DNA from: Candidatus Enterousia sp.
Lineage (GTDB): Bacteria > Pseudomonadota > Alphaproteobacteria > Rs-D84
Length of the DNA: 64,000 nucleotides
Assembly (NCBI GenBank): GCA_045637165.1
Contig: JAZTYU010000009.1
Location: 17,456 to 81,455 of the forward strand
Direction: 5' to 3'
The notes beneath the pieces were generated by a model. It was given only the letters and a program-made list of their open reading frames with translations. It had not been told where the DNA came from and made no database searches. Numbering within the stretch: the stretch's first letter is position 1; each line of letters opens with the position of its first letter. Shown here piece by piece: positions 1 to 24,987 of this stretch. A program made the position numbers and the translations under genes.

Positions 1-1977
1 ACGAAACAATGGTGCCCCACGTTCCATTGCTGTTTCACAAGGTTTGCTATCCGCCAGCCAGTTTTCCAACAAATCCCCTGCAATCAGGCCAACACCTGTT
101 CCAGCAACCAGTCCAATTCCCCCCGTAAACGGTGCCAACAACAAACCAATTCCCGTCGCAGACGCAACCTTGCCCGCAACCGCAGCACCACTTATCTGAA
201 TATCAGGCTCCGCCAAACTTCCCGTCAATTCAATCGAATTTACAACATTTCCCGTCAATGACAACTTTAACCCACGAACAGGCACAGTCGTCAAAGACAA
301 ATGCATCTCTTCTTTGCCTAAATCCAAACTACCTGCCAACCGCAAGTTTATTGCATTTGTTTCAACTGCAACACCATTTTGTGTTTCAATCAAACCGTCA
401 CGCAATTTCGCATTTACAGCAACACAGGATATTTTTATCTGATTATATTTCTTTTCTGAACTAAACAAATCCTGAATACCGTGCCGCAATGTTGTTAGAA
501 AATCAGTCCCATAAATATACGAAACCAATGACGAATGGGCATAGCCTGGTGCAACAGAATAAACCTGAACAGGCCCTGTTATTGTCTGCATAACCTCAGA
601 CAAGTTTTTACCATTTGCCTGAACATAGAATCCAAAATCCACTGGCAATTCTGAAATAAATTCAGACCGATGAATCTCCTTCAAAATTTCCCCTACATAA
701 ATATCCTTACCCTTTGCCCCAACATGCCCCCACAAACGTCCTGTCCCATCAACATCAGCCTCAATTCCAACAACAACATTTCCATCGGCAATCCCAGTTC
801 CAATATTAGCATGCAAATGATTATCCTTTACATTTACCCCCAGCACCAATTTTTCCAAATTCAAATCTTTGTAAACAATGAAATCATCAATGTTTACATT
901 CAAATTTATATTCCTGTTTAACATATACTCACCAAACAAAGGAATATTTTTGAACACATTCAATTTACGATTTATCTTTCCACGTTCCACGCCATATAAT
1001 CCCGGTATCAACTCCGCCAAATCAACACGTGCGGCCGACACATTGGCATTAAAAAACGCCCCCGGTTTTGACCAATCATAATCACCTGAAAAAACAAATT
1101 TTGTTCCATTGACAATAACCTTGGACCGACGCAACGTTATCTTTTTCCAGTCAAAACCACCCACCACTTCCAAATTCAGCGATGGCAACCACGACAGGTC
1201 AACACCAAAGAAACGCCCGACATTTTCAGGACTTACCAAATCCCCCTTTATCACAAAATCAATCGGTGCTTTACTTTTTCCTTCCAGTGCGACATTAGCA
1301 ATCAATGCCTGACCACCTGTTGACACCGCAACCCTTACCGGATAAACCTTACGTTGTGTATTATACTCACTAAAATTGATAATAAATGGCGAAACATTTT
1401 TATCAACCTTAATCCAACCTGAATATTCTCTACCTTCTGCCATTGGCATCAAACGAATATGGAATCCAGACAACGAATACTTTTTCCCAAAAACATCCGC
1501 CTTTAAATTCTTGATTTCAAACCCACCAAGTCCTACATCCTTAAACGGATATTTTTCTGGTTCTGTTGCATTTACAAGCTGCGTCTGTTCTTCTGTCACC
1601 CTTGAAATCCGCTGTATAGAGTATTTTCCATCTACATTTTTTTCAATATTTAACTTTGCATCATAAACCTTGACATTTTGAATCGTTGGTCGATTACGAA
1701 ACAACGAAAGCAGATTTAACCGCACATCAATTTTTTCTGCACTAAATGCGTCCTTATTTTTTGCCCAGCTTTGATTTGCAATTCTAACTTTGTTTAATTC
1801 AACATGTGGCCGCAAAGACAACTTCCACGACACAGCACCATCAATTTCAATTGGCATATCTGTTGCATCACGCAACAAAGTCAATAAATTCCCACGCAAC
1901 GTTTCCAAATTTACCTGACTTAATGCCACAACAACTGCCACGACCATCCCGATAAAACACAGGCCCAAAATTCTCAT
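1..1977 (-). CDS. AsmA-family outer-membrane assembly protein, with N-terminal TM/signal segment; C-terminus cut off by the window edge
   Basis: Reverse-complement reading from ATG at 1975-1977 gives MRILGLCFIGMVVAVVVALSQ... (hydrophobic N-terminus) and continues as far as I translated. Only short patchy plus-strand ORFs are listed for this 2 kb, which fits a long minus-strand gene. The protein has AsmA-like overall character. Confidence 0.55.
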   Translation of the reverse strand, partial: MRILGLCFIGMVVAVVVALSQVNLETLRGNLLTLLRDATDMPIEIDGAVSWKLSLRPHVELNKVRIANQSWAKNKDAFSAEKIDVRLNLLSLFRNRPTIQNVKVYDAKLNIEKNVDGKYSIQRISRVTEEQTQLVNATEPEKYPFKDVGLGGFEIKNLKADVFGKKYSLSGFHIRLMPMAEGREYSGWIKVDKNVSPFIINFSEYNTQRKVYPVRVAVSTGGQALIANVALEGKSKAPIDFVIKGDLVSPENVGRFFGVDLSWLPSLNLEVVGGFDWKKITLRRSKVIVNGTKFVFSGDYDWSKPGAFFNANVSAARVDLAELIPGLYGVERGKINRKLNVFKNIPLFGEYMLNRNINLNVNIDDFIVYKDLNLEKLVLGVNVKDNHLHANIGTGIADGNVVVGIEADVDGTGRLWGHVGAKGKDIYVGEILKEIHRSEFISELPVDFGFYVQANGKNLSEVMQTITGPVQVYSVAPGYAHSSLVSYIYGTDFLTTLRHGIQDLFSSEKKYNQIKISCVAVNAKLRDGLIETQNGVAVETNAINLRLAGSLDLGKEEMHLSLTTVPVRGLKLSLTGNVVNSIELTGSLAEPDIQISGAAVAGKVASATGIGLLLAPFTGGIGLVAGTGVGLIAGDLLENWLADSKPCETAMERGAPLFR

Positions 1978-2009
1978 GATTGGAAAAAAAATACTTCTTC
2001 TTAATTTTT

Positions 2010-2981
2010 TCATGGCAATTGAAATTCCAAAAACCGCATCACAGGCTGCATAAATCCTGGCACTTCTGCCCGCAAAGTCATCATACGCCCTGTTGCCGGG
2101 TGCTGAAATGTTAGCTTATACGCAAACAAAAACAAGTTATTTGTTTCCAACATCAATCCTAACGCCCCATCAAGATTCTGTCGTCCACCATACAACGCAT
2201 CACCAACAATCGGTGCCCCCAGCGAATATGCACTATGCAACCTTAACTGATGTGTTCGCCCTGTTTTTGGTGAAAAACGCACCCACGAAACACACCCTGC
2301 CACACACGACAACACCGAATATTCGGTTACCGCACGTTGTGGACGTGGCCCTGCACCATTATTCAAGCGACTTGGACTATCAAAGACCTGTCCCTTTAAC
2401 ACATAGTTATCGATCAATCCCTTTTTTGGATTAACCTCGCCCCTCAGCAATGCTAAATATTCTTTATGGGCTGTTTTATTTTGAAACTGATTTGACAAGT
2501 TCTGTGCGGCACGCTGATTTTTTGCCACAACCAACAAACCACTTGTTTCCTTGTCCAAACGATGAACTAATGCAATTTTGTCGTATGGAAACAAAGCCGC
2601 CGCCATTTTATCAATAGACTTGCGTATTCCTGTTCCACCCTGCACAGCCAAACCCGCAGGCTTGTTAAACACAACAATATCTTCATCGCTATGAACAATG
2701 CACTTACGCAACGCCTCTAAATCACTCAAAGAAAAAACAATACCGCTTTCTGTTTTTTTTGGTTTTTCCTGTGCATATCCTGCAAGCGTCGGTGGAATTC
2801 GCACCGCATCACCCGTTTTCAAAACTTCTGTTCCACGAACACGTTTTGAATTCACACGAATCTGCCCACCACGACAAAGTTTATAAAACTCACGCTGTGG
2901 CATTGCTGGAAAATGTCGCAAGAACCACCGCAACAGCCGTGTTCCATCTTCTACCTTGGAAACTTCGATAAAATCAGCCAT
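2010..2981 (-). CDS. rluD: RluA-family 23S rRNA pseudouridine synthase (RluC/RluD-like) with N-terminal S4 domain
   Basis: 323 aa with the HRLDKETSGLLVVAKN catalytic-Asp motif typical of the RluA family; N-terminal S4-like RNA-binding region (RVNSKRVRGTEVLKTGDAVRI). Confidence 0.8.
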   Translation of the reverse strand: MADFIEVSKVEDGTRLLRWFLRHFPAMPQREFYKLCRGGQIRVNSKRVRGTEVLKTGDAVRIPPTLAGYAQEKPKKTESGIVFSLSDLEALRKCIVHSDEDIVVFNKPAGLAVQGGTGIRKSIDKMAAALFPYDKIALVHRLDKETSGLLVVAKNQRAAQNLSNQFQNKTAHKEYLALLRGEVNPKKGLIDNYVLKGQVFDSPSRLNNGAGPRPQRAVTEYSVLSCVAGCVSWVRFSPKTGRTHQLRLHSAYSLGAPIVGDALYGGRQNLDGALGLMLETNNLFLFAYKLTFQHPATGRMMTLRAEVPGFMQPVMRFLEFQLP

Positions 2982-3445
2982 TATTCACCATACACAATCT
3001 GAACATAATTTGTTCCATTTTGGCCTTTGCAACTTCCTGTTGCACCACCTTCTTTACCACCAGAACTCTGATAACCAACCGAATCGGACCACGCCTTGGC
3101 GACCAGCGATTCGCATTCTGCCTGTCCCAACCCATTTATCGTCACAACAAACTGACGTGGATTAGATTGATTGACTGCCAGTTCATACAAACCACCATAT
3201 GGATTTTTATTACTCATACCAATTGCACCAAAAATCGTCTGACCGTTCATATTCGAAAAATCATCGTATTCGCCGTGAATATTGCGAACCATCGTCACCA
3301 TTTGGATAACTTCATCATTTACTTCGGTCAGTTTCTGTGTCCTCATTGCGGTTGAAATCATACCGATTGCACCAACGGTAATAATCCCCATAATTGCCAA
3401 CACCCCCAACATTTCAATCATCGAACGTCCAGATTCTTGATTCAT
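2981..3445 (-). CDS. Type IV pilin / pseudopilin-like protein (prepilin-type N-terminus)
   Basis: N-terminus MNQESG|RSMIEMLGVLAIMGIITVGAIG has Gly at -1, Glu at +5 and a hydrophobic helix, the class III signal of prepilins. There is a C-terminal Cys pair (QAECESL...GSCKGQ) like a T4a pilin D-region. It overlaps the rluD start by 1 nt. Confidence 0.6.
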   Translation of the reverse strand: MNQESGRSMIEMLGVLAIMGIITVGAIGMISTAMRTQKLTEVNDEVIQMVTMVRNIHGEYDDFSNMNGQTIFGAIGMSNKNPYGGLYELAVNQSNPRQFVVTINGLGQAECESLVAKAWSDSVGYQSSGGKEGGATGSCKGQNGTNYVQIVYGE

Positions 3446-5639: not shown

Positions 5640-6770
5640 CTAAAACCAACCTTTTTTCTCTGTCTTGGTTTCTGCAAATTCATTTAATAATTTCTTTTGC
5701 TTATCAGACAATTTTGTCGGTATTTTAATTGCCACTTCTATATACAAATCGCCAAAACTACCTGCCCTGCGAACAGATGGCATACCATGCCCACGAACAC
5801 GCAACTTTTCACCAACCTGCGTTCCGCTTGGCACCTTGACCGACAACTTTTTATCATCAATTGTTTGGACTTCGATTTCACCGCCCAAGGCCAATGTTGT
5901 AAACGGCACATCAACACGCATAATCAAATCATTTCCACGGCGTTCAAACCGCTTGTCTGGACGAATTCTGACATCTAAATAAAAATCCCCTGCTGGTCCA
6001 CCATTAGCACCTGCTTCACCTTGTCCTGCCAAACGCAACCGTGCACCATCTTCGATACCTGCTGGTATTTTTACCTCTAATGTTCTTTGTTTATGTTCTG
6101 TACCACTGCCATCACATTGACTGCATTTCTTTGAAATCTTGCGTCCCAACCCATTACATTCTGGACATGGTGCCTCCATTGCAAAGAATCCCTGACGTGT
6201 TTGAATAAAGCCACTGCCCCCACATCTTGAACACACCGGGGCCTGCTTTCCATCTGCAGTTCCATTTCCATGACATTTTTCACATTGAACATTGCTTGAA
6301 AAATTTACAGTATGTGTTTTTCCAAAATAAGCATCTTTTAAATCTATAACAACCTCGTCCAGCAAATCACGCCCACCACGCTGTGGTGCACCACGTTGTG
6401 GTCCACCGCCAAAGTCGCCAAAACCGAATCCTCTCATTGCCTCACGCAGGATATCTTCCATACCGGCACCACCACCCATATTAAAGTGGAACCCACCATT
6501 ACCAAACGGATTACCCCCACCAAATCCAGCACCTGCCCCATTACCATTTGCAAACGCCGCATCACCAAACCGGTCATATGCCGCACGTTTCTGTGGGTCT
6601 TTCAAGATATCAAAGGCATTATTGACTTCTTTGAATTTTTCTTCTGCGTCTTTGTTATCTGGATTTCTATCGGGATGATATTTCATCACCAATTTATGAT
6701 ACGCCTTTTTAATATCTGCATCTGACGCATCACGTGCCACCCCCAGCACTTCATAAGGATTTTTATTCAT
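5640..6770 (-). CDS. dnaJ: Chaperone DnaJ
   Basis: J domain (NPYEVLGV...[16 protein letters not shown]), Gly/Phe-rich linker, four CxxCxGxG zinc-finger repeats, C-terminal domains. No dnaK adjacent. Confidence 0.95.
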
Positions 6771-15050: not shown

Positions 15051-16589
15051 TTATTGGATACCGACGCGGAACTCATCGCCCCAGTTAGAAATCACCTGAC
15101 CTCCAACAGTGCATTGAATATCTTCGAAACCATCTTCGATTTGGTTCTTTTTTACAATATTACTGGTTATCAAGCCCCCAGCAGTTCCCAAAACAACCCC
15201 TGCCACAGAATCTGATACCAAACGTGAAGTATTAAAATTACCTTTTTCGTCTTTCCAGACACTGACCTTGAATCCAGAACGAATCGAATCCAACACATCT
15301 GCCGCACTGGTTATACGTTTTTGAATCGCCGACACTTCAGCCTCCGCTTCCAATTTTTCACGCTTCGCACGTGCATCATCAGATTCAACACAGGCAGTCC
15401 CTGCATCATTTAATACCTTGTCATCATCTTTGCAACGACATTCTTTTTCTATCATATCCCACACAGCACCAACAACTTTCTCGCAATTTTCAATCGCAGG
15501 ATTCAAAACACATTTCTTACCCCGATAAATATTACGTGGATTATCGCATTTACATTGACCTGTTTCCCAATATGCTCCTGTTCCAGACGCAGCCTCGCAT
15601 TCACGTCGTGCAGTGGCTTCATCTGTCAAATCACATTTGTTTCCATTGCGTTTGTAATTATCATCTAAGCAAACACAAACACCACCATCTTCACGTAAAT
15701 TTTTAGCATTATCACATTTGCACAAACTACCTTTCCACTCCCCACCAGAATCACGACATCTTTTTGCTTTTTGTTGATTTTGCTGTTCTTGCTGTTTCCG
15801 TCTATTATCATCCTCTTCTTTCTTTTTTCTTTCCTTGAATTCTTTGGTTTCAACACAGCCCTGGGTCGCTGATTTAAATTCGTAATCATTATTGATACAT
15901 TCACAAGCGGTTCTGTCTGCTTTTAATTTCAAATTTTTTCCTGCATCACAAGAACAAGTATTATTCGACCAAACGCCACCAGACGTTTCACAAACATTTT
16001 GCCGATTGTCCACTATACAATCTGTTTTAGCTGTATTTGGAATATACCCTTCATTACACGCATAATAAACACAGGCATCATTCCCTGCCAATGTAATATC
16101 GTTATCACCAGCTGTCTCGGTATGGGTTGTTTTTGAACCGGCCAACAGATATCTTGTGCGTCCATTTTCTGTTGCTGCTTGTTTTAGAGGAGAATTGTTA
16201 CAAACAACTGTTGGATTATATGACCGCCACTCGTCCCAAGCCCCAGTAATATCTACACATTGAAACAAATGAATAATTTCATTATCATGCACATCACGTT
16301 GCCCAATAATACGCCCATAACCACACTCTTGCCCATTATTAAATGCCCCATTATCACTATCACAAGAATAACATTGGTCGCTACCTGGGTGCGAACGAAT
16401 GTATTCTTGGTTTTCACCAACAGCCAAATCATTATCTGGACACGCCGCTAAAATACATTTTTGCAAAGAGCTTCCCGCCGAATAAGTTAATGGTTGCATC
16501 CCATACCCATATGTCGGACTTGCAAAACTTGCCCCACCTGCAAGCATAAAGATTCCACAAAAAACTGACAGCATCAGAATTTTTTTCAT
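15051..16589 (-). CDS. Secreted cysteine-rich repeat protein (512 aa) with a charged coiled-coil segment
   Basis: Signal peptide MKKILMLSVFCGIFMLAGGASFA; repeated ~30-aa Cys modules (CSCDAGKNLKLKADRTACEC; CKCDNAKNLREDGGVCVC; CKCDNPRNIYRGKKC; CRCKDDDKVLNDAGTAC); central KE/Q-rich stretch; sigma70-like promoter upstream. Similar in style to the 9863 gene. Confidence 0.6.
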   Translation of the reverse strand: MKKILMLSVFCGIFMLAGGASFASPTYGYGMQPLTYSAGSSLQKCILAACPDNDLAVGENQEYIRSHPGSDQCYSCDSDNGAFNNGQECGYGRIIGQRDVHDNEIIHLFQCVDITGAWDEWRSYNPTVVCNNSPLKQAATENGRTRYLLAGSKTTHTETAGDNDITLAGNDACVYYACNEGYIPNTAKTDCIVDNRQNVCETSGGVWSNNTCSCDAGKNLKLKADRTACECINNDYEFKSATQGCVETKEFKERKKKEEDDNRRKQQEQQNQQKAKRCRDSGGEWKGSLCKCDNAKNLREDGGVCVCLDDNYKRNGNKCDLTDEATARRECEAASGTGAYWETGQCKCDNPRNIYRGKKCVLNPAIENCEKVVGAVWDMIEKECRCKDDDKVLNDAGTACVESDDARAKREKLEAEAEVSAIQKRITSAADVLDSIRSGFKVSVWKDEKGNFNTSRLVSDSVAGVVLGTAGGLITSNIVKKNQIEDGFEDIQCTVGGQVISNWGDEFRVGIQ

Positions 16590-16661: not shown

Positions 16662-16688
16662 AAAAACGCCCAAACGGGCGGTTTTTAT
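16662..16688 (-). terminator. Intrinsic terminator after dnaA
   Basis: cgccc-aaac-gggcg hairpin with a T-run on the minus strand (aaaaacgcccaaacgggcggttttta). Confidence 0.6.
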
Positions 16689-17962
16689 TTACATTCATTT
16701 ACAAACTGTTGTATCTGCGCTGCCAAAACCAAATCATTTGCTTTTTGCTTTTCAATCTGTTTGATTGCATACAAAACTGTTGCATGATCACGACCACCAA
16801 CAAAATTACCAATTTCTGACAAAGACAACTGTGTCGCTTCTTTTAATACAACCATCATAATCTGACGTGCCAAGACCAATGAACGACTGCGACCGGTGCC
16901 ACAAACTGCATCATATGAAACTGCCAATTTTTCACACATATCTTTGACCATTGCTGTTGGTGTTTTTGCAGTCTGCAATGTATCTGCCAACAAACGCTGT
17001 GCAATTTCCATATCAACATTTGCACCCATCAATTCAACATATGCTTTGATTTTTGTTGCAACACCTGCGATTTGATGCCCATCATTTGCAATACGTTTTA
17101 CCAAAACATCTGCAACATCTGATTTTACACCTGCACGTTTCAACATAACTGACTTCACATATGTATTTGGTGCAATGACATCTGCAACCAAACCTGATGC
17201 CAACAACCCCTGGGCATGACGATCAAAACCTGTCAAATTGCTTGGTGCTGCATTTGCAGTGATAACAATATTTTTGCCAGCGTTGCGTAAATCAACAACC
17301 AACTGCAAGAATTCTTCTGTTGATGCTTTCTTGCCACTTAATGCCTGAACATCATCCAAGATAAATGTTTCGCAATTACGGCAGAAATCTTTGAATGCGA
17401 AAACATTGTGTTCTTTCAGACTGCGTGTGAATTCAGAAACAAACTGTGCACCACTCATCTTTACAACTTTTGAATTTGATGCACCACAAATGCATTCTGC
17501 CAACAAAGATTTACCACAACCTGCCGCACCATAGATAAACAATGGTGAAAACGCAACCACACCTGCTGCAACTTTCTTGCATGCAGAAACAACAAACATA
17601 TTTTCATCTGATGTAACAAAAGCATCAAAAGCAACGTTTGTAGCAACTGGTGTTGCGACTGGTGCGAATGCCTGTGCCTTGTTGTCATTTGCAACTGATG
17701 TTGCGGCAACCTTGGCATTACGAACAACAACTTTTACACCCAAACCAAAAGATGCAGCAACATCTGATAAAACACCTGCATGAACACTGTTGATAAAATC
17801 CGCTGAAAACTGATTTTGTGCACCTAATACCAAAACACCATCTACAACATCAAAAGACAAAGGTGCAATCCAAGAAGTAAATGTAGCAGAATCGACTTTT
17901 GCAGCAATGGCCCCTTTGATTGTTTCCAGGTTTGTCATTTTAATTTTTACTGCTGTCTGCAT
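16685..17962 (-). CDS. dnaA: Chromosomal replication initiator DnaA
   Basis: AAA+ Walker A (GAAGCGKSLL), sensor motifs, C-terminal DNA-binding domain IV (GGRDHATVLYAIKQIEK). The ORF track starts at a TTG at 18028; the ATG at 17962 (MQTAVKIKM) is likelier. Confidence 0.9.
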   Translation of the reverse strand: MQTAVKIKMTNLETIKGAIAAKVDSATFTSWIAPLSFDVVDGVLVLGAQNQFSADFINSVHAGVLSDVAASFGLGVKVVVRNAKVAATSVANDNKAQAFAPVATPVATNVAFDAFVTSDENMFVVSACKKVAAGVVAFSPLFIYGAAGCGKSLLAECICGASNSKVVKMSGAQFVSEFTRSLKEHNVFAFKDFCRNCETFILDDVQALSGKKASTEEFLQLVVDLRNAGKNIVITANAAPSNLTGFDRHAQGLLASGLVADVIAPNTYVKSVMLKRAGVKSDVADVLVKRIANDGHQIAGVATKIKAYVELMGANVDMEIAQRLLADTLQTAKTPTAMVKDMCEKLAVSYDAVCGTGRSRSLVLARQIMMVVLKEATQLSLSEIGNFVGGRDHATVLYAIKQIEKQKANDLVLAAQIQQFVNECK

Positions 17963-18156
17963 TCTGTTTCTCCTTTCCTTCCCTAAAAGAGAGCCGTCTG
18001 AACCAGGTTGTAAAAGCCACCTGCACAAAACACCATTTTCTGCCTTCCTGTTCAGAATTATGATATTTTTATTGTCCTACTTTTAACTCTCTCGCCGTTA
18101 AAATTTTTGAACTTCATTTTATTTCTGGCCTTTGAACCTAAATAAAAATCCATCCA

Positions 18157-19531: not shown

Positions 19532-20416
19532 TTATTCTGACAGGATTACGAAATACGGCTCCCACTTTTCACAGGCATCTGGCTTTTCTGACTCAGCCTC
19601 AACCCAAACTGCATCACCACAATCTTGTTTCAAAGACTTTAATCTATCCATAAACCGTCTGTATTCTGTTTCGTTGTCTTTTTGCAGAACTGCCAACTGC
19701 GAACGCAACAAGCCGACCTGATCATTACGTTCCAAATCTTTTTGTCCTTCTACATCACCACCAATCAACCCGTTTCCAAACAATTCCATTGCACCGACAC
19801 CAACGGCCGCCCCACCAACTGCACCACCAACCGTTGCCCATGTTCGTGCAGATTTCTTGGCATCTAAGATGCGTTCCTTTAACGTCCCTTTATTTGCCCA
19901 TTCACCACACGTGATAATTCTGCCCATTTCATAATATTTTGGCAAAACATCCGCCACACTAATTCTTGAATCATTTGATTTTAACTCGACCTTTACAAAA
20001 CAAGTATTATTATCAGGTTCTTCGATATCTTCAATCATTGTTGAATAACTGCCCAGATTGCTATAACGAGATGCCCAAACAAAAGTATTCCCAACACCAA
20101 TATTATTCTGCAGGCAAGCACGCTTTTCTTTTTCACGCATATCTTTTTCTGCTGGCTTCATCTCTTCTGGTTTTACCGCCAGACTTGCATCAACATCTTC
20201 CACCTTGACACTTGGCTTATTTACCGTCACAGATTCTGGCACCAATACCGCCCCTGCTGAAATCTGGGCCTTGGATGCAACCGCACGTGGTGCCGCCATC
20301 ATCTGATTTGACATCGATGCCCGTCCACGCCCCGTCGCCGGTGTCAATGTCGGCACAGACGCCACTGCAGGTCCAATCCCCAAGATTAAAATAAACACGG
20401 AAAAAAATCTGCTCAT
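19532..20416 (-). CDS. Secreted hypothetical protein with glycine-zipper and coiled-coil C-terminus
   Basis: Signal peptide MSRFFSVFILILGIGPAVASVP; GGAVGGAAVGVGAMELFGNGLIGG segment; no known domain. Confidence 0.5.
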   Translation of the reverse strand: MSRFFSVFILILGIGPAVASVPTLTPATGRGRASMSNQMMAAPRAVASKAQISAGAVLVPESVTVNKPSVKVEDVDASLAVKPEEMKPAEKDMREKEKRACLQNNIGVGNTFVWASRYSNLGSYSTMIEDIEEPDNNTCFVKVELKSNDSRISVADVLPKYYEMGRIITCGEWANKGTLKERILDAKKSARTWATVGGAVGGAAVGVGAMELFGNGLIGGDVEGQKDLERNDQVGLLRSQLAVLQKDNETEYRRFMDRLKSLKQDCGDAVWVEAESEKPDACEKWEPYFVILSE

Positions 20417-20490
20417 CGCTCACTTCCCTCTTGATATCTTTCAAGTAATTATACCACAAAAAGCATAAAAAATAAAGTGCAAATCAAAAA

Positions 20491-20512
20491 CAAAAGGGGC
20501 AAAAAACGCCCC
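20491..20512 (-). terminator. Intrinsic terminator after plsY
   Basis: ggggc-aaaaaac-gcccc hairpin followed by TTTTG on the minus strand. Confidence 0.55.
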
Positions 20513-20521
20513 TTTTACGAA

Positions 20522-21109
20522 TTATTTTTTCCATTTCCACTCTATTTTTGACTCTTTACCTGTCAACAAACGCTTGATATTTTCCCGATGTCGCCACATA
20601 CACAGCAAACCAATTGCCACAAAAGCCCAGCCAACCATCGGACTGATTAAGAATCCCAACACAGGAATATAGCAAAATACAATCAACGCCCCAAACGAAG
20701 AAATCCCACTAGTTAACGCCACAATCAACCACAACGCCCCACACGTTGCAAACGCCACTGGACTAACCGCCAACAATACACCAAACAGCGAAGAAATCCC
20801 CTTACCCCCTTTAAACTTTAACCAAATCGGATAACAATGCCCAACGATTGCTGCAAATCCACACCACGCACCAAACGCATCACCTGCGATATATTTTCCC
20901 AAGAAAACTGCGGCAATTGCCTTGGCCATATCCAGAATCCAGACCAAGCCTGCCATACGCAATCCACCGACACGCATAACATTTGTTGCCCCGATATTGC
21001 CACTGCCAACCTTACGTAAATCGCCCTTGCCTGCGATTTTTGTCAGAATTAACCCCATTGGCACACTGCCAAACAAATAAGATATAATTATTCCAATTAA
21101 GTAAACCAT
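20522..21109 (-). CDS. plsY: Glycerol-3-phosphate acyltransferase PlsY
   Basis: PlsY signature GSGNIGATNVMRVGG, 5-TM profile, 195 aa. Confidence 0.9.
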   Translation of the reverse strand: MVYLIGIIISYLFGSVPMGLILTKIAGKGDLRKVGSGNIGATNVMRVGGLRMAGLVWILDMAKAIAAVFLGKYIAGDAFGAWCGFAAIVGHCYPIWLKFKGGKGISSLFGVLLAVSPVAFATCGALWLIVALTSGISSFGALIVFCYIPVLGFLISPMVGWAFVAIGLLCMWRHRENIKRLLTGKESKIEWKWKK

Positions 21110-21515: not shown

Positions 21516-22511
21516 TTATAACCCCAAACGATAAATTTTGACATAACTGGTTGAACTTGAGCCAATCCCACCACTGCCACCTGCACCGCCGTTTGCGTTT
21601 ACGCCAACCCCAAACAATCCCCCCATTGACGCACCGCCGCCACCGCCACCACCGTATGAATAAAATGTCTGCCCACCACACGAATATGCAACATTTGCAC
21701 CACCCGTTCCACCACTTGACGAACTAGTTCCGAACAACCCACCGATTGACGAGCCACCACCATTACCACCAGCATTATCCGTCGCATCTGCCCCTGCTGA
21801 ACCATTATACAAGAACCCAGACGACTCTTCACCGCCTTTGCCAGCCAATGAACCACCACCCCCTGCACCACAAACAAACCCATTAGCATCCCAGGCGTCT
21901 GCACCAACCGACCCCATTCCCGATTGTGCACCTGTTATACCACCACCGCCTCCTGCGGCACAATCCTGGGCTGTGCCATCAGACTTAGTCGCAACTGCAC
22001 CCATTCCACCTGTTCCACCCTGGGAAATAATATATTTACCATCAACGGCAAAAAAACTTGGCACACCAGATGCACCGCCACCGCCGCCAGAATACAAACC
22101 ACCCGACGAATTCACGCCACCTGCCTTACCATCACTGCCACGTAAAAGATAAACATCAGTTGTCTGATATAAATTAAAACTCAAATACTCTTCTGTAGTT
22201 ACAGAGCCTTCATCTCCATTATTACCACCAGCACCACCTTTACCACCCATAACCACAACCGAATAACACCCCGGACTTAAACTTACCTTTTCACACGAGT
22301 CAAATTTTGTTGCCTCATAAACCAATGTTGATTTTCCGATTGTCCACGAAGCATCACCTTCACCAACGACTAAACTGTCAGCACAGGCCCCCAAATGAGC
22401 TTCTGCATAGTAAAGATTTCCAGAAGAATCCATGAACTTAAGTGCCGGTTGCGTTGTCTGAACCGTCTGCAAAACAATTTGAATATCAGCAATATTTATT
22501 GCAGGCATCAC
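21516..22511 (-). CDS. Glycine-rich protein (331 aa); probable C-terminal part of a split tail-fibre-like gene
   Basis: Long GGxGG/GGAGG repeats with no signal peptide of its own. Its ATG (22509-22511) is in the same frame as, and 3 codons after, the TAA of the upstream 22518..22919 ORF. Confidence 0.45.
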   Translation of the reverse strand: MMPAINIADIQIVLQTVQTTQPALKFMDSSGNLYYAEAHLGACADSLVVGEGDASWTIGKSTLVYEATKFDSCEKVSLSPGCYSVVVMGGKGGAGGNNGDEGSVTTEEYLSFNLYQTTDVYLLRGSDGKAGGVNSSGGLYSGGGGGASGVPSFFAVDGKYIISQGGTGGMGAVATKSDGTAQDCAAGGGGGITGAQSGMGSVGADAWDANGFVCGAGGGGSLAGKGGEESSGFLYNGSAGADATDNAGGNGGGSSIGGLFGTSSSSGGTGGANVAYSCGGQTFYSYGGGGGGGASMGGLFGVGVNANGGAGGSGGIGSSSTSYVKIYRLGL

Positions 22512-22517
22512 ACAACC

Positions 22518-22919
22518 TTAGTTAAACCAGACGTAAACCTGTCCTTCTGGTGGCGTGCCAGTCGGTGCAACAGTTGGAATCGTTCCAAAACGCACATCAT
22601 CACCAGCTGCAACTGTATTAGCAGTTGTTCCAACAGGCAACCGACCATACGAAACTGTCCCAGAAGACAAATTATTTGCATTTGTCTGGTCAACATTCTT
22701 TACATTTTCTAAACCAACCTGTGCAGCCGTAACAGCATGCGGATTTGACTTATTTGTCGTATGACTATTAAATTCAGTTTTATCAACTTTATTACTTGCT
22801 ACCGCCGCAACAATTGCATCAACATACCCCTTGGATGTTAAATTTGCACGACAAACAGCTGGGAAAAACAATCCCCCAGACAAAAACATACAAATTAAAA
22901 CAATACGTTTTAACACCAC
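22518..22919 (-). CDS. Secreted protein with a phage-tail-fibre-like motif (133 aa); probable N-terminal part of a split gene
   Basis: Signal peptide MVLKRIVLICMFLSGGLFFPAVC. HAVTAAQVGLENVKNVDQTNANNLSSGT resembles the (T/A)AAQVGLGNV motif common in phage tail-fibre proteins. A sigma70-like promoter lies upstream. Confidence 0.5.
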   Translation of the reverse strand: MVLKRIVLICMFLSGGLFFPAVCRANLTSKGYVDAIVAAVASNKVDKTEFNSHTTNKSNPHAVTAAQVGLENVKNVDQTNANNLSSGTVSYGRLPVGTTANTVAAGDDVRFGTIPTVAPTGTPPEGQVYVWFN

Positions 22920-22984: not shown

Positions 22985-23014
22985 ATTATAAGAAAAAAAC
23001 CGAATCTGTCGCAA
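22985..23014 (-). promoter_or_regulatory. Sigma70-like promoter for the 22919 gene
   Basis: Minus strand reads TTGCGA, 18-nt spacer, TATAAT. Confidence 0.45.
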
Positions 23015-23149
23015 CAAAAAAATCAGTTTTCTACTCAGTACAAAAAAACACATATAAACAACAAGTTAGCACACAATAAACAAAACATACTAATGTGGTA
23101 AACTTTATATAAAACATGACAATTTATAAAGACACGAGTTTTCAACACA

Positions 23150-23350
23150 AAAAATTAAATAAAATGATTTAGATGCGGACAGTGTCGTCCCCGCAGTGCC
23201 CAGAAGCGACACAAGGAAACGACACCGTTCACAGATGAATTATCAACAAATAAGTGAAATTAAATAGAATGATTTAGATATGCGAAAATCCGTTGGTGTA
23301 GTGTATTGAACATACATGAGCCAACGGATTTACGCATAGATGAATTATTA
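23150..23350. repeat. Tandem pair of ~105-bp elements with conserved termini and divergent GC-rich hairpin cores
   Basis: Unit 1: aaattaaataaaatgatttagatgcgg + variable hairpin (gtgtcgt...acgacac) + cacagatgaattat. Unit 2: gaaattaaatagaatgatttagatatgcg + variable hairpin (ccgttgg...ccaacgg) + catagatgaattat. The pair ends at the secretin stop codon. Confidence 0.5.
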
Positions 23351-23358
23351 TATTTAAT

Positions 23359-24987
23359 TTAGTTCAGTGGTGCACCCCAGTGCTGTTGTATCCCACGCTC
23401 TACATCCATTGGGCTAACCAAAACCTGTGGTGTCAAGATAACCACCAAGACCTCACGAGTTGCCGATGTTTCACGAGAACCAGACAACGCCATAAAGTCA
23501 GGGTCCCCCAAACCATAACGTGTATCTTCATTGGTCTGCTTTTCAAACCCTGAAACAACTAACATCTGGCCAGATTCCATAATCACTTCCTGCATAAAGC
23601 TACGTTCTTCGACTTCTGGCAATTGCAAGGTCACCTCACCAATTGTCTGGGTTGACATACGCAACAATTCACGAACAGACATACGGAACAACAACAAGAT
23701 TCGACCATTTTCTAATACATTTGGCAAAAGCTGCATTGTAAATCCTGTTTCCAAATCATCTTGGTCAACAGTGCTAGATTCGACTGTTGTAAAGTTTCTA
23801 GATTCGAAACGTTTGATATAACCAGTTGTTCTAGTATTGCTGACTGGTGCAACACGATTTGAACGTGTTGTGACACCAACATTTGTGACCAAAGAAACCT
23901 TACCCTGCTTTGCCAACGCCTGAATCAAAGCATTACTACCAGCCGCCCCTGACAAGGAACCATTCATAATCTGGTCGTTAGTATATGCCCCTTCAACGGT
24001 TGAAGAACCTTCCTGATGTGTTGCACCAGTCAATGCAGAAACTGTATTTGACAGAACTGCAATATTCATCGAACTAGCCTCAGTCGATGCCAAATTATTT
24101 TTTGGATTTGCAACAATATTCAACCCAGAAGCAGAATTTATTGCTGCTGCCAAGTTCAAACCAAATGCAGAATCATTTGAAATCGTAACCTGTAATACCT
24201 TTACATCGATTGTAATCAACTGACTTAGACGTTTGTTTTGACGTTCGATATATTCACCAACACGTGCTAAAATAGATGGTGATGCCGTCACTGTGATTGT
24301 TCCCAAACTGCGCGAAACTGTAAAGTCTGCATTTGAAGCCTTACCAATAATTGAAGAAATCGCACTTTCAACTTCATCCCACTCTTTCAACGTAGATTCC
24401 AAAGACACTTCATTAGAATTATCTGTCGAAACAGATGTCTGATATGCAACTTCTGTTCCTAATGCGTATAATGTAAATGTTTTCGTTTCTGTTTCATAGA
24501 ACACAATAGAATTTTTATCGTAATACCATAACAAATCCAAGTCTGTCGCGACCTGGCTCAACAAGCCTGACAATTTACCAGTATAAGCAATATTTACCTG
24601 TTTCTTTAATTTTTCTGCTGAAACCTGACCATCGATTTTTACCGGAATCCCCGTAATTGAATAAATATCATTTGCCAAAACCTGCAACGACACTGGTTCA
24701 TCTAACAAGATTGTCACACCTGTATCTGTTTCAAACTTTGACGGCAAATTATTGCGATGTTCCAATACCATTGATTTACTGCCCAACCAAACACCCTCGG
24801 ACATAGAAACAGTATCACCAGTAGCCACCTTTGCCCTTGGATTTTTCGCCATTTCAAATGCATCGTATGCATTGATAAAATCCTGGTCCACAGATGCCGC
24901 AACCTTGGCAGACTCTTTTCTGGCACACCCCGTAATTGTTGCAAGAACTAAACTGCCCAAAATCAAAAGTTTAAATGGAATTTTCAT
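23359..24987 (-). CDS. Lipoprotein secretin of the PilN/TcpC/BfpB (type IVb pilus) family
   Basis: Lipobox LATITGC; 542 aa; C-terminal secretin domain (GQMLVVSGFEKQTNEDTRYGLGDPDFMALSGSRETSATREVLVVILTPQVL). Confidence 0.65.
   Translation of the reverse strand: MKIPFKLLILGSLVLATITGCARKESAKVAASVDQDFINAYDAFEMAKNPRAKVATGDTVSMSEGVWLGSKSMVLEHRNNLPSKFETDTGVTILLDEPVSLQVLANDIYSITGIPVKIDGQVSAEKLKKQVNIAYTGKLSGLLSQVATDLDLLWYYDKNSIVFYETETKTFTLYALGTEVAYQTSVSTDNSNEVSLESTLKEWDEVESAISSIIGKASNADFTVSRSLGTITVTASPSILARVGEYIERQNKRLSQLITIDVKVLQVTISNDSAFGLNLAAAINSASGLNIVANPKNNLASTEASSMNIAVLSNTVSALTGATHQEGSSTVEGAYTNDQIMNGSLSGAAGSNALIQALAKQGKVSLVTNVGVTTRSNRVAPVSNTRTTGYIKRFESRNFTTVESSTVDQDDLETGFTMQLLPNVLENGRILLLFRMSVRELLRMSTQTIGEVTLQLPEVEERSFMQEVIMESGQMLVVSGFEKQTNEDTRYGLGDPDFMALSGSRETSATREVLVVILTPQVLVSPMDVERGIQQHWGAPLN

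Follow-up and report, generated by a model that had tools for sequence, protein, structure and literature searches.

An undescribed family of palindromic repeats seated on gene stop codons in Candidatus Enterousia probably works like a bidirectional intrinsic terminator

Results

The window, by which we mean the whole 64-kb stretch of Candidatus Enterousia DNA analysed here, carries a secretin gene on its minus strand (23359-24987; PF00263, E = 1.7e-13), as an earlier note on this DNA had proposed. A gene with a TcpQ domain (Pfam) precedes it, and an exact-protein lookup of the window secretin returned no record. Downstream of the secretin gene lies a head-to-tail pair of 105-base modules at 23152-23256 (unit 1, gene-distal) and 23257-23361 (unit 2, gene-proximal), and downstream of these repeats is a minus-strand open reading frame of 133 aa without a Pfam match (22518-22919). 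Three other minus-strand frames in the window also lack a Pfam match, namely 15051-16589 (512 aa, Cys-rich), 19532-20416 (294 aa) and 21516-22511 (331 aa, Gly-rich). In other genomes the repeat often sits at the stop codon of genes for relatives of Cys-rich proteins ending in ..CFPP(L/I)(K/R).

The earlier note had described two consecutive units of about 105 bp that share a 5' and a 3' block around differing cores, each core an inverted repeat, and both observations hold. In a repeat search the copies of the 5' block (23152-23174 and 23257-23279) were 96% identical over 23 nt and those of the 3' block (23230-23243 and 23335-23348) 93% identical over 14 nt, with a spacing of exactly 105 nt for either pair. 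An inverted-repeat search returned arms of 40 nt that are 85% complementary in unit 2 and arms of 25 nt that are 72% complementary in unit 1. What had been missed is that the shared end blocks are the two arms of one stem: they pair with each other, so that each unit forms one long imperfect palindrome. Also missed were a conserved apical module, the anchoring on a stop codon, and the fact that the best-folding strand is antisense to the secretin gene.

Read along the plus strand, unit 2 is complete. Its outer arm AAATTAAATA (23257-23266) is followed by the G of a G·A mismatch (23267), the inner arm AATGATTTA (23268-23276), the left-hand GA (23277-23278), the left arm of the variable stem (23279-23296) and the apical module TGTAGTGTATTGAACATACATGAG (23297-23320). 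The right arm of the variable stem (23321-23338), the right-hand GA (23339-23340), the inner 3' arm TGAATTATT (23341-23349) and the outer 3' arm TATTTAATTT (23351-23360) make up the returning side, and the TAA stop of the secretin gene (23359-23361) overlaps the last two bases of that outer arm. Unit 1, on the same strand, was delimited from sequence, repeats and the covariance model described below. It comprises the outer 5' arm AAATTAAATA (23152-23161), the inner arm AATGATTTA (23163-23171), the GA forming the left side of a tandem G·A loop (23172-23173), the left arm of the variable stem (23174-23192), the apical module GCAGTGCCCAGAAGCGACACAAGG (23193-23216), the right arm of the variable stem (23217-23233), the right-hand GA (23234-23235) and the inner 3' arm TGAATTAT (23236-23243). 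The outer 3' arm is missing from unit 1, and the terminal linker CAACAAATAAGTG (23244-23256) stands in its place. At the other end, the first three bases of its outer 5' arm (23152-23154) overlap a run of six U in the secretin-sense transcript (23149..23154, minus strand), where transcription coming out of the secretin gene may terminate.

The window units fold with z-scores of -5 to -13 against dinucleotide shuffles. Unit 2 reaches -47.7 kcal/mol on the plus strand and -32.9 on the minus strand, the plus-strand fold being stronger because several of its pairs are G·U on that strand only. A covariance model trained on 79 relatives and the two window units (81 sequences) matched unit 2 with 105.7 bits (E = 1.3e-24) and unit 1 with 66.3 bits (E = 2.8e-14) on the plus strand and 20.9 bits on the minus strand, scores that are partly circular because both units sat in the training set. 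A full-sensitivity search of the 64-kb window with this model found no copies beyond units 1 and 2. A weak match on the minus strand at 20468-20549 (20.5 bits, E = 0.03) is no family member; it is the ordinary A-tract, hairpin and T-tract terminator after the gene at 20522-21109 (GTAAAAGGGGCGTTTTTTGCCCCTTTTGT TTTT), which indicates that the model in part scores the generic shape of a bidirectional terminator.

Upstream of the 133-aa gene, a consensus scan marked a promoter-like TTGCGA-18-TATAAT on the minus strand (22985..23014). This bare consensus match, one of four promoter-like sites in the region against 4.1 expected from shuffles, would imply a transcription-unit boundary at the repeat pair. 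The order secretin gene, element, 133-aa gene is conserved at locus L117. At L010 (7586-7680) a Shine-Dalgarno-like GAGGGAGG comes about 25 nt after the secretin gene and leads into the orf133 homologue, with neither repeat nor terminator; the boundary seen in the window is thus not universal.

We searched species-representative genomes for the two end blocks lying 40-70 nt apart, which retrieved at least 117 stretches. With an HMM built from the alignment, the family amounts to at least 132 units in at least 87 arrays from at least 48 genomes, the window included. The window units are members of an undescribed dispersed repeat family, not a private duplication. About 80 of the matches listed span 78-82 nt and come from Ca. 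Enterousia and gut Alphaproteobacteria MAGs of ruminants, human and horse; no family member among the matches listed came from outside Candidatus Enterousia and related MAGs. We excluded 24 matches with a span of 89 nt in Streptococcus and other Bacillota (L005, L025-L027, L052, L053, L062, L084, L089, L105, L116 and others) as chance hits in the coding sequence of one conserved gene (..YIDYDLD...KKMNYP..), and likewise left out scattered single chance matches in other phyla. Viral contigs gave no match to the apical-motif pattern. Rfam reported two tRNAs only in the window at gathering score, and a permissive search added hairpin noise only, with E above 0.2. A small repeat family, one of the options the earlier note had raised, is therefore the right description, and the further copies which that note had suggested looking for lie in related genomes and not in the rest of the window.

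Candidatus Enterousia is an uncultured gut lineage with a coding density of about 90%. Repeats are nowhere mentioned in the Enterousia papers that we found. Published Enterousia MAGs belong to the order Rs-D84 and measure 0.75-1.0 Mb (PMC12306168).

Taking the plus strand of the window as the top strand, a complete unit consists, in order, of an A-run, a 10-bp outer stem (AAATWAAWTA with TAWTTWATTT), a G·A mismatch, a 9-bp inner stem, a 2x2 loop, a middle stem, an apical module and a T-run. The inner stem usually pairs AATGATTTA with TGAATTATT and includes two G·U pairs. The 2x2 loop sets AGAT opposite AGAT, a tandem G·A, and is present in 92 of 94 units. The middle stem, of 17-19 bp, is hypervariable, whereas the apical module is conserved and consists of a 3x2 loop with GUA opposite GA, a 5-bp stem of GUGUA with UACAU, and a closing loop of 7-9 nt.

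Among the 81 sequences, 94.1% of the cells in the proposed structure are paired, compared with 80.4% after column shuffling and about 40% with slid partners; cells with double changes number 494 against 167 in shuffles. RNAalifold finds compensatory changes at 19 pairs. A covariance-style structure prediction, which the earlier note had recommended, thus yields one shared fold in which all stems covary. The outer stem does so as AAATAAATTA/TAATTTATTT, AAATTAAATA/TATTTAATTT, AAATCAATTA/TAATTGATTT and AAACGAATTA/TAATTCGTTT, and the inner stem, in units not forced by the search pattern, as AATGGTATA/TATGCCATT, AATGGTTTA/TAGACCATT and AAAGACACA/TGTGTTATT. At least eight unrelated, self-complementary "alleles" of the middle stem exist, and they recur across species. 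That ATGATTTAGAT and AGATGAATTAT do not vary among the first 79 copies is a product of the search pattern. Where units were recovered independently of it, the AGAT/AGAT loop, the apical stem and the U·G/C·A loop pair stay fixed. This last pair, in the GUA/GA loop, is U·G in 64 units and C·A in 17 (81 of 94 together) and Watson-Crick in 8, a pattern that is an isosteric wobble substitution.

The two strands of the element are not equivalent. On the top strand the inner stem contains 175 G·T pairs against 3 A·C and the apical stem 94 against 3, while the middle stem is without strand bias (59 against 74). The top strand is the more stable one in 94 of 97 units, with a mean of -47.9 kcal/mol compared with -35.9 for the bottom strand, and this best-folding strand is antisense to the abutting gene.

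The family is anchored on stop codons. Of 77 arrays whose neighbour could be scored, 73 have their top-strand 3' end no more than about 10 nt from the stop codon of an opposite-strand gene, at offsets of -12 to +5 or -7 to +10 depending on which of two measures is used. The stop often lies inside the outer arm (..AAA TAA ATT..), and TAA is used at 76 of 80 abutting stops. At the opposite end the placement is loose: the array faces the end of a convergent gene 42 times and the start of a gene 21 times, and the gap ranges from -15 to several hundred nt. Convergent genes flank 38 arrays and co-directional genes 19, and no array of the 87 interrupts a gene. Apparent in-gene insertions at four arrays were rejected, the spanning open frames being spurious and overlapping real genes in other frames.

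The abutting genes form a limited set of housekeeping orthologues, with EF-P at 11 arrays and others encoding FtsK, YebC, FabF, SecB, GroEL, DnaA, TrxB, a Clp-type ATPase, and outer-membrane and surface proteins, names that we inferred from C-terminal sequences and that are backed by Pfam only for DnaA and the secretin of the window. Besides the window, arrays abut the secretin gene at L034, L103, L114 and L117, Ca. Enterousia MAGs whose secretin orthologues are 89-93% identical; with the gene order that it shares with L117, the window thus stems from a close relative of these MAGs. GC skew of the top strand is negative in 84 of 87 arrays. Because the abutting gene and the G-rich strand are on the same side in those 84 arrays, orientation to the gene and orientation to replication are inseparable. 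Within the window itself GC skew is negative in every 2-kb bin (-0.05 to -0.38) and cumulative skew falls steadily; with no inflection at dnaA (16.7-18.0 kb), the replication origin is apparently not beside dnaA here.

Homologous gene ends without the element offer a comparison. We collected 29 of these from the fetched loci and the window, including a few paralogue-like matches, and most of them have a short GC hairpin and a T run close after the stop. The window dnaA gene (16685-18028, minus strand) ends in TAA AAACCGCCCGTTTGGGCGTTTTTAT with a terminator at 16662-16687 (CGCCC GTTT GGGCG TTTTT), which the element replaces at L010 and L072. The ftsK gene at L086 has a terminator and no element (TAA AAATCCCCGCAAGTGCGGGGATTTTTAT), and secB at L058 shows the same arrangement, with a canonical terminator after the stop. 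Since terminators occupy most orthologous sites that are free of the element, the two are positionally interchangeable. A canonical terminator follows 19 of the 61 window genes, starting within 15 nt of the stop in 10 of the 19; terminators hug stops generally, so adjacency to the stop codon is the usual placement of a terminator in these compact genomes. No such terminator follows the window secretin gene, where the repeat pair stands instead.

U-rich tails (UAAUUUAUUUU) arise in both directions from the A-tract and T-tract arms, an arrangement known from bidirectional terminators; the tails follow the inner stem and are themselves part of the outer stem. AU-rich lower stems separate the U-rich tract from the GC-rich stem, and a simple terminator scan does not call the window units. 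Intrinsic terminators with long stems do function (PMC10325885).

Among the matches listed there are 53 single elements, 27 doubles, 4 triples, 2 quadruples and 1 quintuple. Orientation is uniform within an array, and the complete unit stands at the top-strand 3' end. Earlier units are of two kinds. In one, just the outer 3' arm is missing and the unit ends in a short linker, CAACAAATAAGTG in the window and CAGCAAATATA or CCGATAAAT elsewhere. The other is cut after the apical module and 5-9 nt of the right arm and then continues into a conserved C-rich linker (...CCCAACCCCTTGCnnnnnn or ...CACACAGCACATCAGATGCGT); C-rich linkers of truncated units also read CCCCTTGC... and ...CATCAGATGCGT. Chimeric units with non-matching arms occur at L010, L085 and L073.

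Stem alleles are shared within genomes. At one orthologous site the allele varies among species, and among the matches listed, alleles at least 90% identical make up 16.7% of same-genome, different-gene pairs, 5% of same-gene, different-genome pairs and 2.4% of the background. A metagenome scan with the unit-2 allele as the pattern located this allele after fabF at L119. At L118 we found a trimer of two unit-1-type modules and then one of unit-2 type. Its linker, CAACAAATAAGTG, is that of the window, but it abuts an unrelated gene whose product ends in ..CFPPLR, which argues for copying or conversion of blocks between gene ends that are not orthologous. Target-site duplications were not found: flank matches of 2, 3, 4 and 5 bp at 47 single elements numbered 2, 0, 0 and 0, against shuffle means of 4.0, 0.6, 0.1 and 0.05. 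A Pfam scan of 48 window ORFs detected no transposase, integrase, tyrosine recombinase or cas gene.

Some neighbouring features deserve mention in their own right. A second GC-rich palindromic repeat, CGTCATACC(C/G)GCG..GGGTATCCATTGCCCCGCAGGGAC, accompanies arrays at L034 (about 5950-6010) and L039 (about 1230-1290) and in the flanks of L035 and L072. Locus L072 also contains GTCATTCCCGCGCAGGCGGGAATCC, which resembles the neisserial dRS3/REP-type motif ATTCCC-N8-GGGAAT. At L119 a tRNA-gene-like sequence, recognised by eye, spans about 15-90; its 3' flank ACCATAAAATTAAAATCGGCCTTGTGCCGGTTTTTGTTTTAT recurs about 195 nt downstream, and a 335-aa ORF at 2181-3188 looks integrase-like by eye. The stretch 1-3200 of that locus suggests an integrated element near fabF.

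Discussion

The function best supported by these data, which we hold with somewhat better than even confidence, is bidirectional intrinsic termination combined with formation of a 3'-end hairpin, by a module that is copied among terminator sites. A complete unit would act as an A-tract, long hairpin and T-tract module sitting on the stop codon of a gene, most likely as a factor-independent terminator in both directions and as a 3'-end hairpin. Transcription exiting the secretin gene would copy the minus-strand version, which would fold and run into U-rich tracts. Opposing transcription would copy the plus-strand version, whose predicted fold is better by about 12 kcal/mol and whose U tract would come exactly at the secretin stop; this version would shield the secretin gene from antisense read-in. 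We propose the top-strand form as a strong barrier that may halt opposing transcription exactly at the stop codon of the gene. Units, and even whole multi-unit blocks, would be copied or converted between terminator positions within a genome. Termination had been among the functions considered in the earlier note, and it gains support from the position on stop codons and from the interchange with canonical terminators at orthologous sites.

Several observations do not follow from termination. The AGAT/AGAT loop, the wobble in the GUA/GA loop and the GUGUA/UACAU stem are features that plain termination could do without. A terminator model gives no role to truncated units and their conserved C-rich linkers, and the folding bias towards the top strand counts against a plain terminator, as does L010, where the secretin gene and the gene downstream are separated by neither element nor terminator.

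Among the other explanations, a private tandem duplication that has drifted and has no wider meaning might be suggested by two adjacent units of identical length. Local duplication with drift, to which the earlier note had been prepared to yield, is not borne out: each window unit is nearer to units in other genomes than to its neighbour, the closest among the matches listed being L023, L043 and L118 for unit 1 and L086, L098, L118 and L119 for unit 2 and its stem allele. A family of at least 132 units refutes this account, to which we assign a negligible probability. Equally negligible is the idea that the minus strand encodes 25-aa peptides ending in LNH(S/F)I. Both window units do hold an open frame of 25 codons with an ATG or GTG start, as the earlier note had seen, but a coding role does not survive comparison across the family, which refutes it: in 68 of 91 members that frame has no start codon, start positions vary, lengths range from 7 to 34 codons, the common arm variant AAATAAATTA has no stop at that position, and no Shine-Dalgarno sequence precedes the starts. 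Less easily dismissed, though improbable in our judgement, are independent plus-strand sRNA genes antisense to the secretin gene, each with its own promoter, formed by a CTTGC -35-like box 17-18 nt before AATGAT, and ending at the U tract of the outer arm; the G·A and wobble motifs would then be protein-binding features. The better fold of the plus-strand RNA would suit such genes, and its conserved G·U pairs and purine-rich internal loops are characteristic of structured RNA. Further points in favour are a C-rich tract with CTTGC, which 37 of 131 units carry at a constant 31-33 nt ahead of AGAT, and a promoter-like TCAACA-16-TAGAAT ahead of unit 2. The geometry TTGCnn-N17/18-AATGAT fits a sigma-70 promoter but conflicts with the paired 5' arms: the start site it predicts falls inside the inner arm, leaving a transcript without the covarying 5' arms. 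Moreover, most units, window unit 1 included, have no CTTGC box, promoter-like sites are as numerous as shuffles predict, and no Rfam family matches.

A selfish mobile element recognised by its structure, that is, a single-stranded DNA hairpin like those of REP/RAYT, IS200/IS605 ends or integron attC, copied by a putative HUH or tyrosine recombinase, is a possibility that we take seriously but consider unlikely. Such an element would survive at gene ends by standing in for the terminator it displaced, and its conserved loops would be the features an enzyme recognises, the stems needing only to pair. It would account for conserved loops and mismatches beside hypervariable, compensated stems, for strand-specific folding, for the lack of target-site duplications, for an orientation fixed to strand composition (negative top-strand GC skew in 84 of 87 arrays) and for presence or absence at orthologous sites. 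Alleles common within a genome, an identical dimer at non-orthologous sites and the chimeric units with mismatched arms (L010, L085, L073) also fit. Against it, the 64-kb window holds no transposase or integrase and the units no attC core sites; IS200 and IS608 TnpA probes found nothing below E = 0.7 in about 0.55 Mb of flanking loci (8-kb blocks), a weak negative; the genomes are reduced to under 1 Mb (PMC12306168); and complementarity of the arms could equally be maintained by template switching inside a palindrome. Many species carry the element at the same sets of orthologous genes, as would be expected if it were retained for its function. To an equally limited extent we entertain the family as the cis element of an unrecognised protein-nucleic-acid system, in which a strand-specific RNA or single-stranded DNA hairpin is read by a dedicated partner. 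The non-Watson-Crick motifs, the antisense-strand folding bias and the arrays of truncated units hint at such a protein, and block-wise exchange, together with those motifs and that bias, leaves some room for one, though we would rather bet against it. The partner could be a recombinase copying units from one gene end to another, in a system akin to attC or REP, or a factor that binds or processes RNA and so defines mRNA 3' ends; it would read the tandem G·A loop, the isosteric U·G/C·A wobble and the apical module, and truncated-unit arrays would be intermediates or regulatory parts.

Reduced genomes such as those of Enterousia are expected to have shed repeats, yet a conserved, structured, multi-copy element overlaps the stop codons of efp, ftsK, groEL, fabF, secB, dnaA and other genes. 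If it terminates transcription, as we favour, transcript-end signals in Enterousia would be a homologous, exchanging family and not independently evolved hairpins. In Enterousia MAGs the family may readily mark gene ends and the boundaries of operons. It may also serve as a case of covariation with conserved non-canonical motifs that point to a binding partner, and as a system for studying how terminators are replaced and homogenised in shrinking genomes. Should a recombinase or processing factor be involved, it would represent a new structure-recognising system comparable to attC/IntI or REP/RAYT.

Among known repeats, REP/BIME/REPIN and SMAG sequences are similar in being short, dispersed, extragenic imperfect palindromes, single or arrayed with conserved linkers, at gene 3' ends, with possible RNA hairpins or terminators and no target duplication; the apical module of the Enterousia element even contains a GTAG...CTAC pair as REPs do. 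REPs, however, are about 35 nt long and conserved in sequence within a genome, whereas the Enterousia unit of about 105 nt combines hypervariable stems with conserved loops and has GTAG at its apex instead of its foot. Copy number looks low beside that of REPs, with at most five fetched loci per genome among the matches listed, and the IS200 and IS608 probes gave no TnpA-like match of the kind expected of REP/RAYT, a weak negative that covers the fetched loci only. Integron attC sites share the pattern of fixed loops and varying stems, conservation of structure over sequence, conserved mismatches, strand-specific folding antisense to the preceding ORF, a start at or overlapping the ORF stop codon, and arrays of uniform orientation. 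They differ in their R''/R' core sites (RYYYAAC / GTTRRRY): Enterousia units end in AAATWAAWTA ... TAWTTWATTT, no GTTRRRY occurs in 23150-23365, and neither intI nor any other integrase is found among the 48 window ORFs. The preceding genes are syntenic housekeeping genes and not cassettes, and units may adjoin without an ORF between them. The earlier note was right to set attC aside for want of core sites, and right about CRISPR too, the variable segments being self-complementary and recurrent across genomes, unlike spacers, with no cas domains among the 48 ORFs. A cut-and-paste MITE was rejected as well; the outer and inner arms would provide terminal inverted repeats, but target-site duplication is absent.

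Pneumococcal BOX and neisserial Correia/NIME elements are likewise modular, with terminal modules that pair around variable internal ones, and are intergenic, affecting or presumed to affect transcripts. They have no sequence similarity to the Enterousia element, their copies are conserved over the full length and not anchored on stops, and Correia elements make TA duplications. Rickettsia palindromic elements (RPE), likewise palindromic repeats, are about 100-150 bp long and also occur in alphaproteobacteria with reduced genomes, but they insert in frame into coding and RNA genes, whereas 0 of 87 Enterousia arrays lie inside a gene, and sequence similarity is again lacking. Canonical bidirectional terminators share the site right after the stop, the A-tract/T-tract symmetry and the interchangeability at orthologous positions. 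The Enterousia hairpin is longer, about 85-90 nt against 15-30, places AU-rich lower stems between the GC stem and the U tract, conserves its loops across species, and belongs to a homologous multi-copy family. As a genomic object, the Enterousia element thus resembles the REP/BIME/REPIN, BOX and Correia palindromes, and it differs from all of them in that its loops are conserved and its stems vary; in the way it works, to judge from its sequence and position, it is probably like a bidirectional intrinsic terminator.
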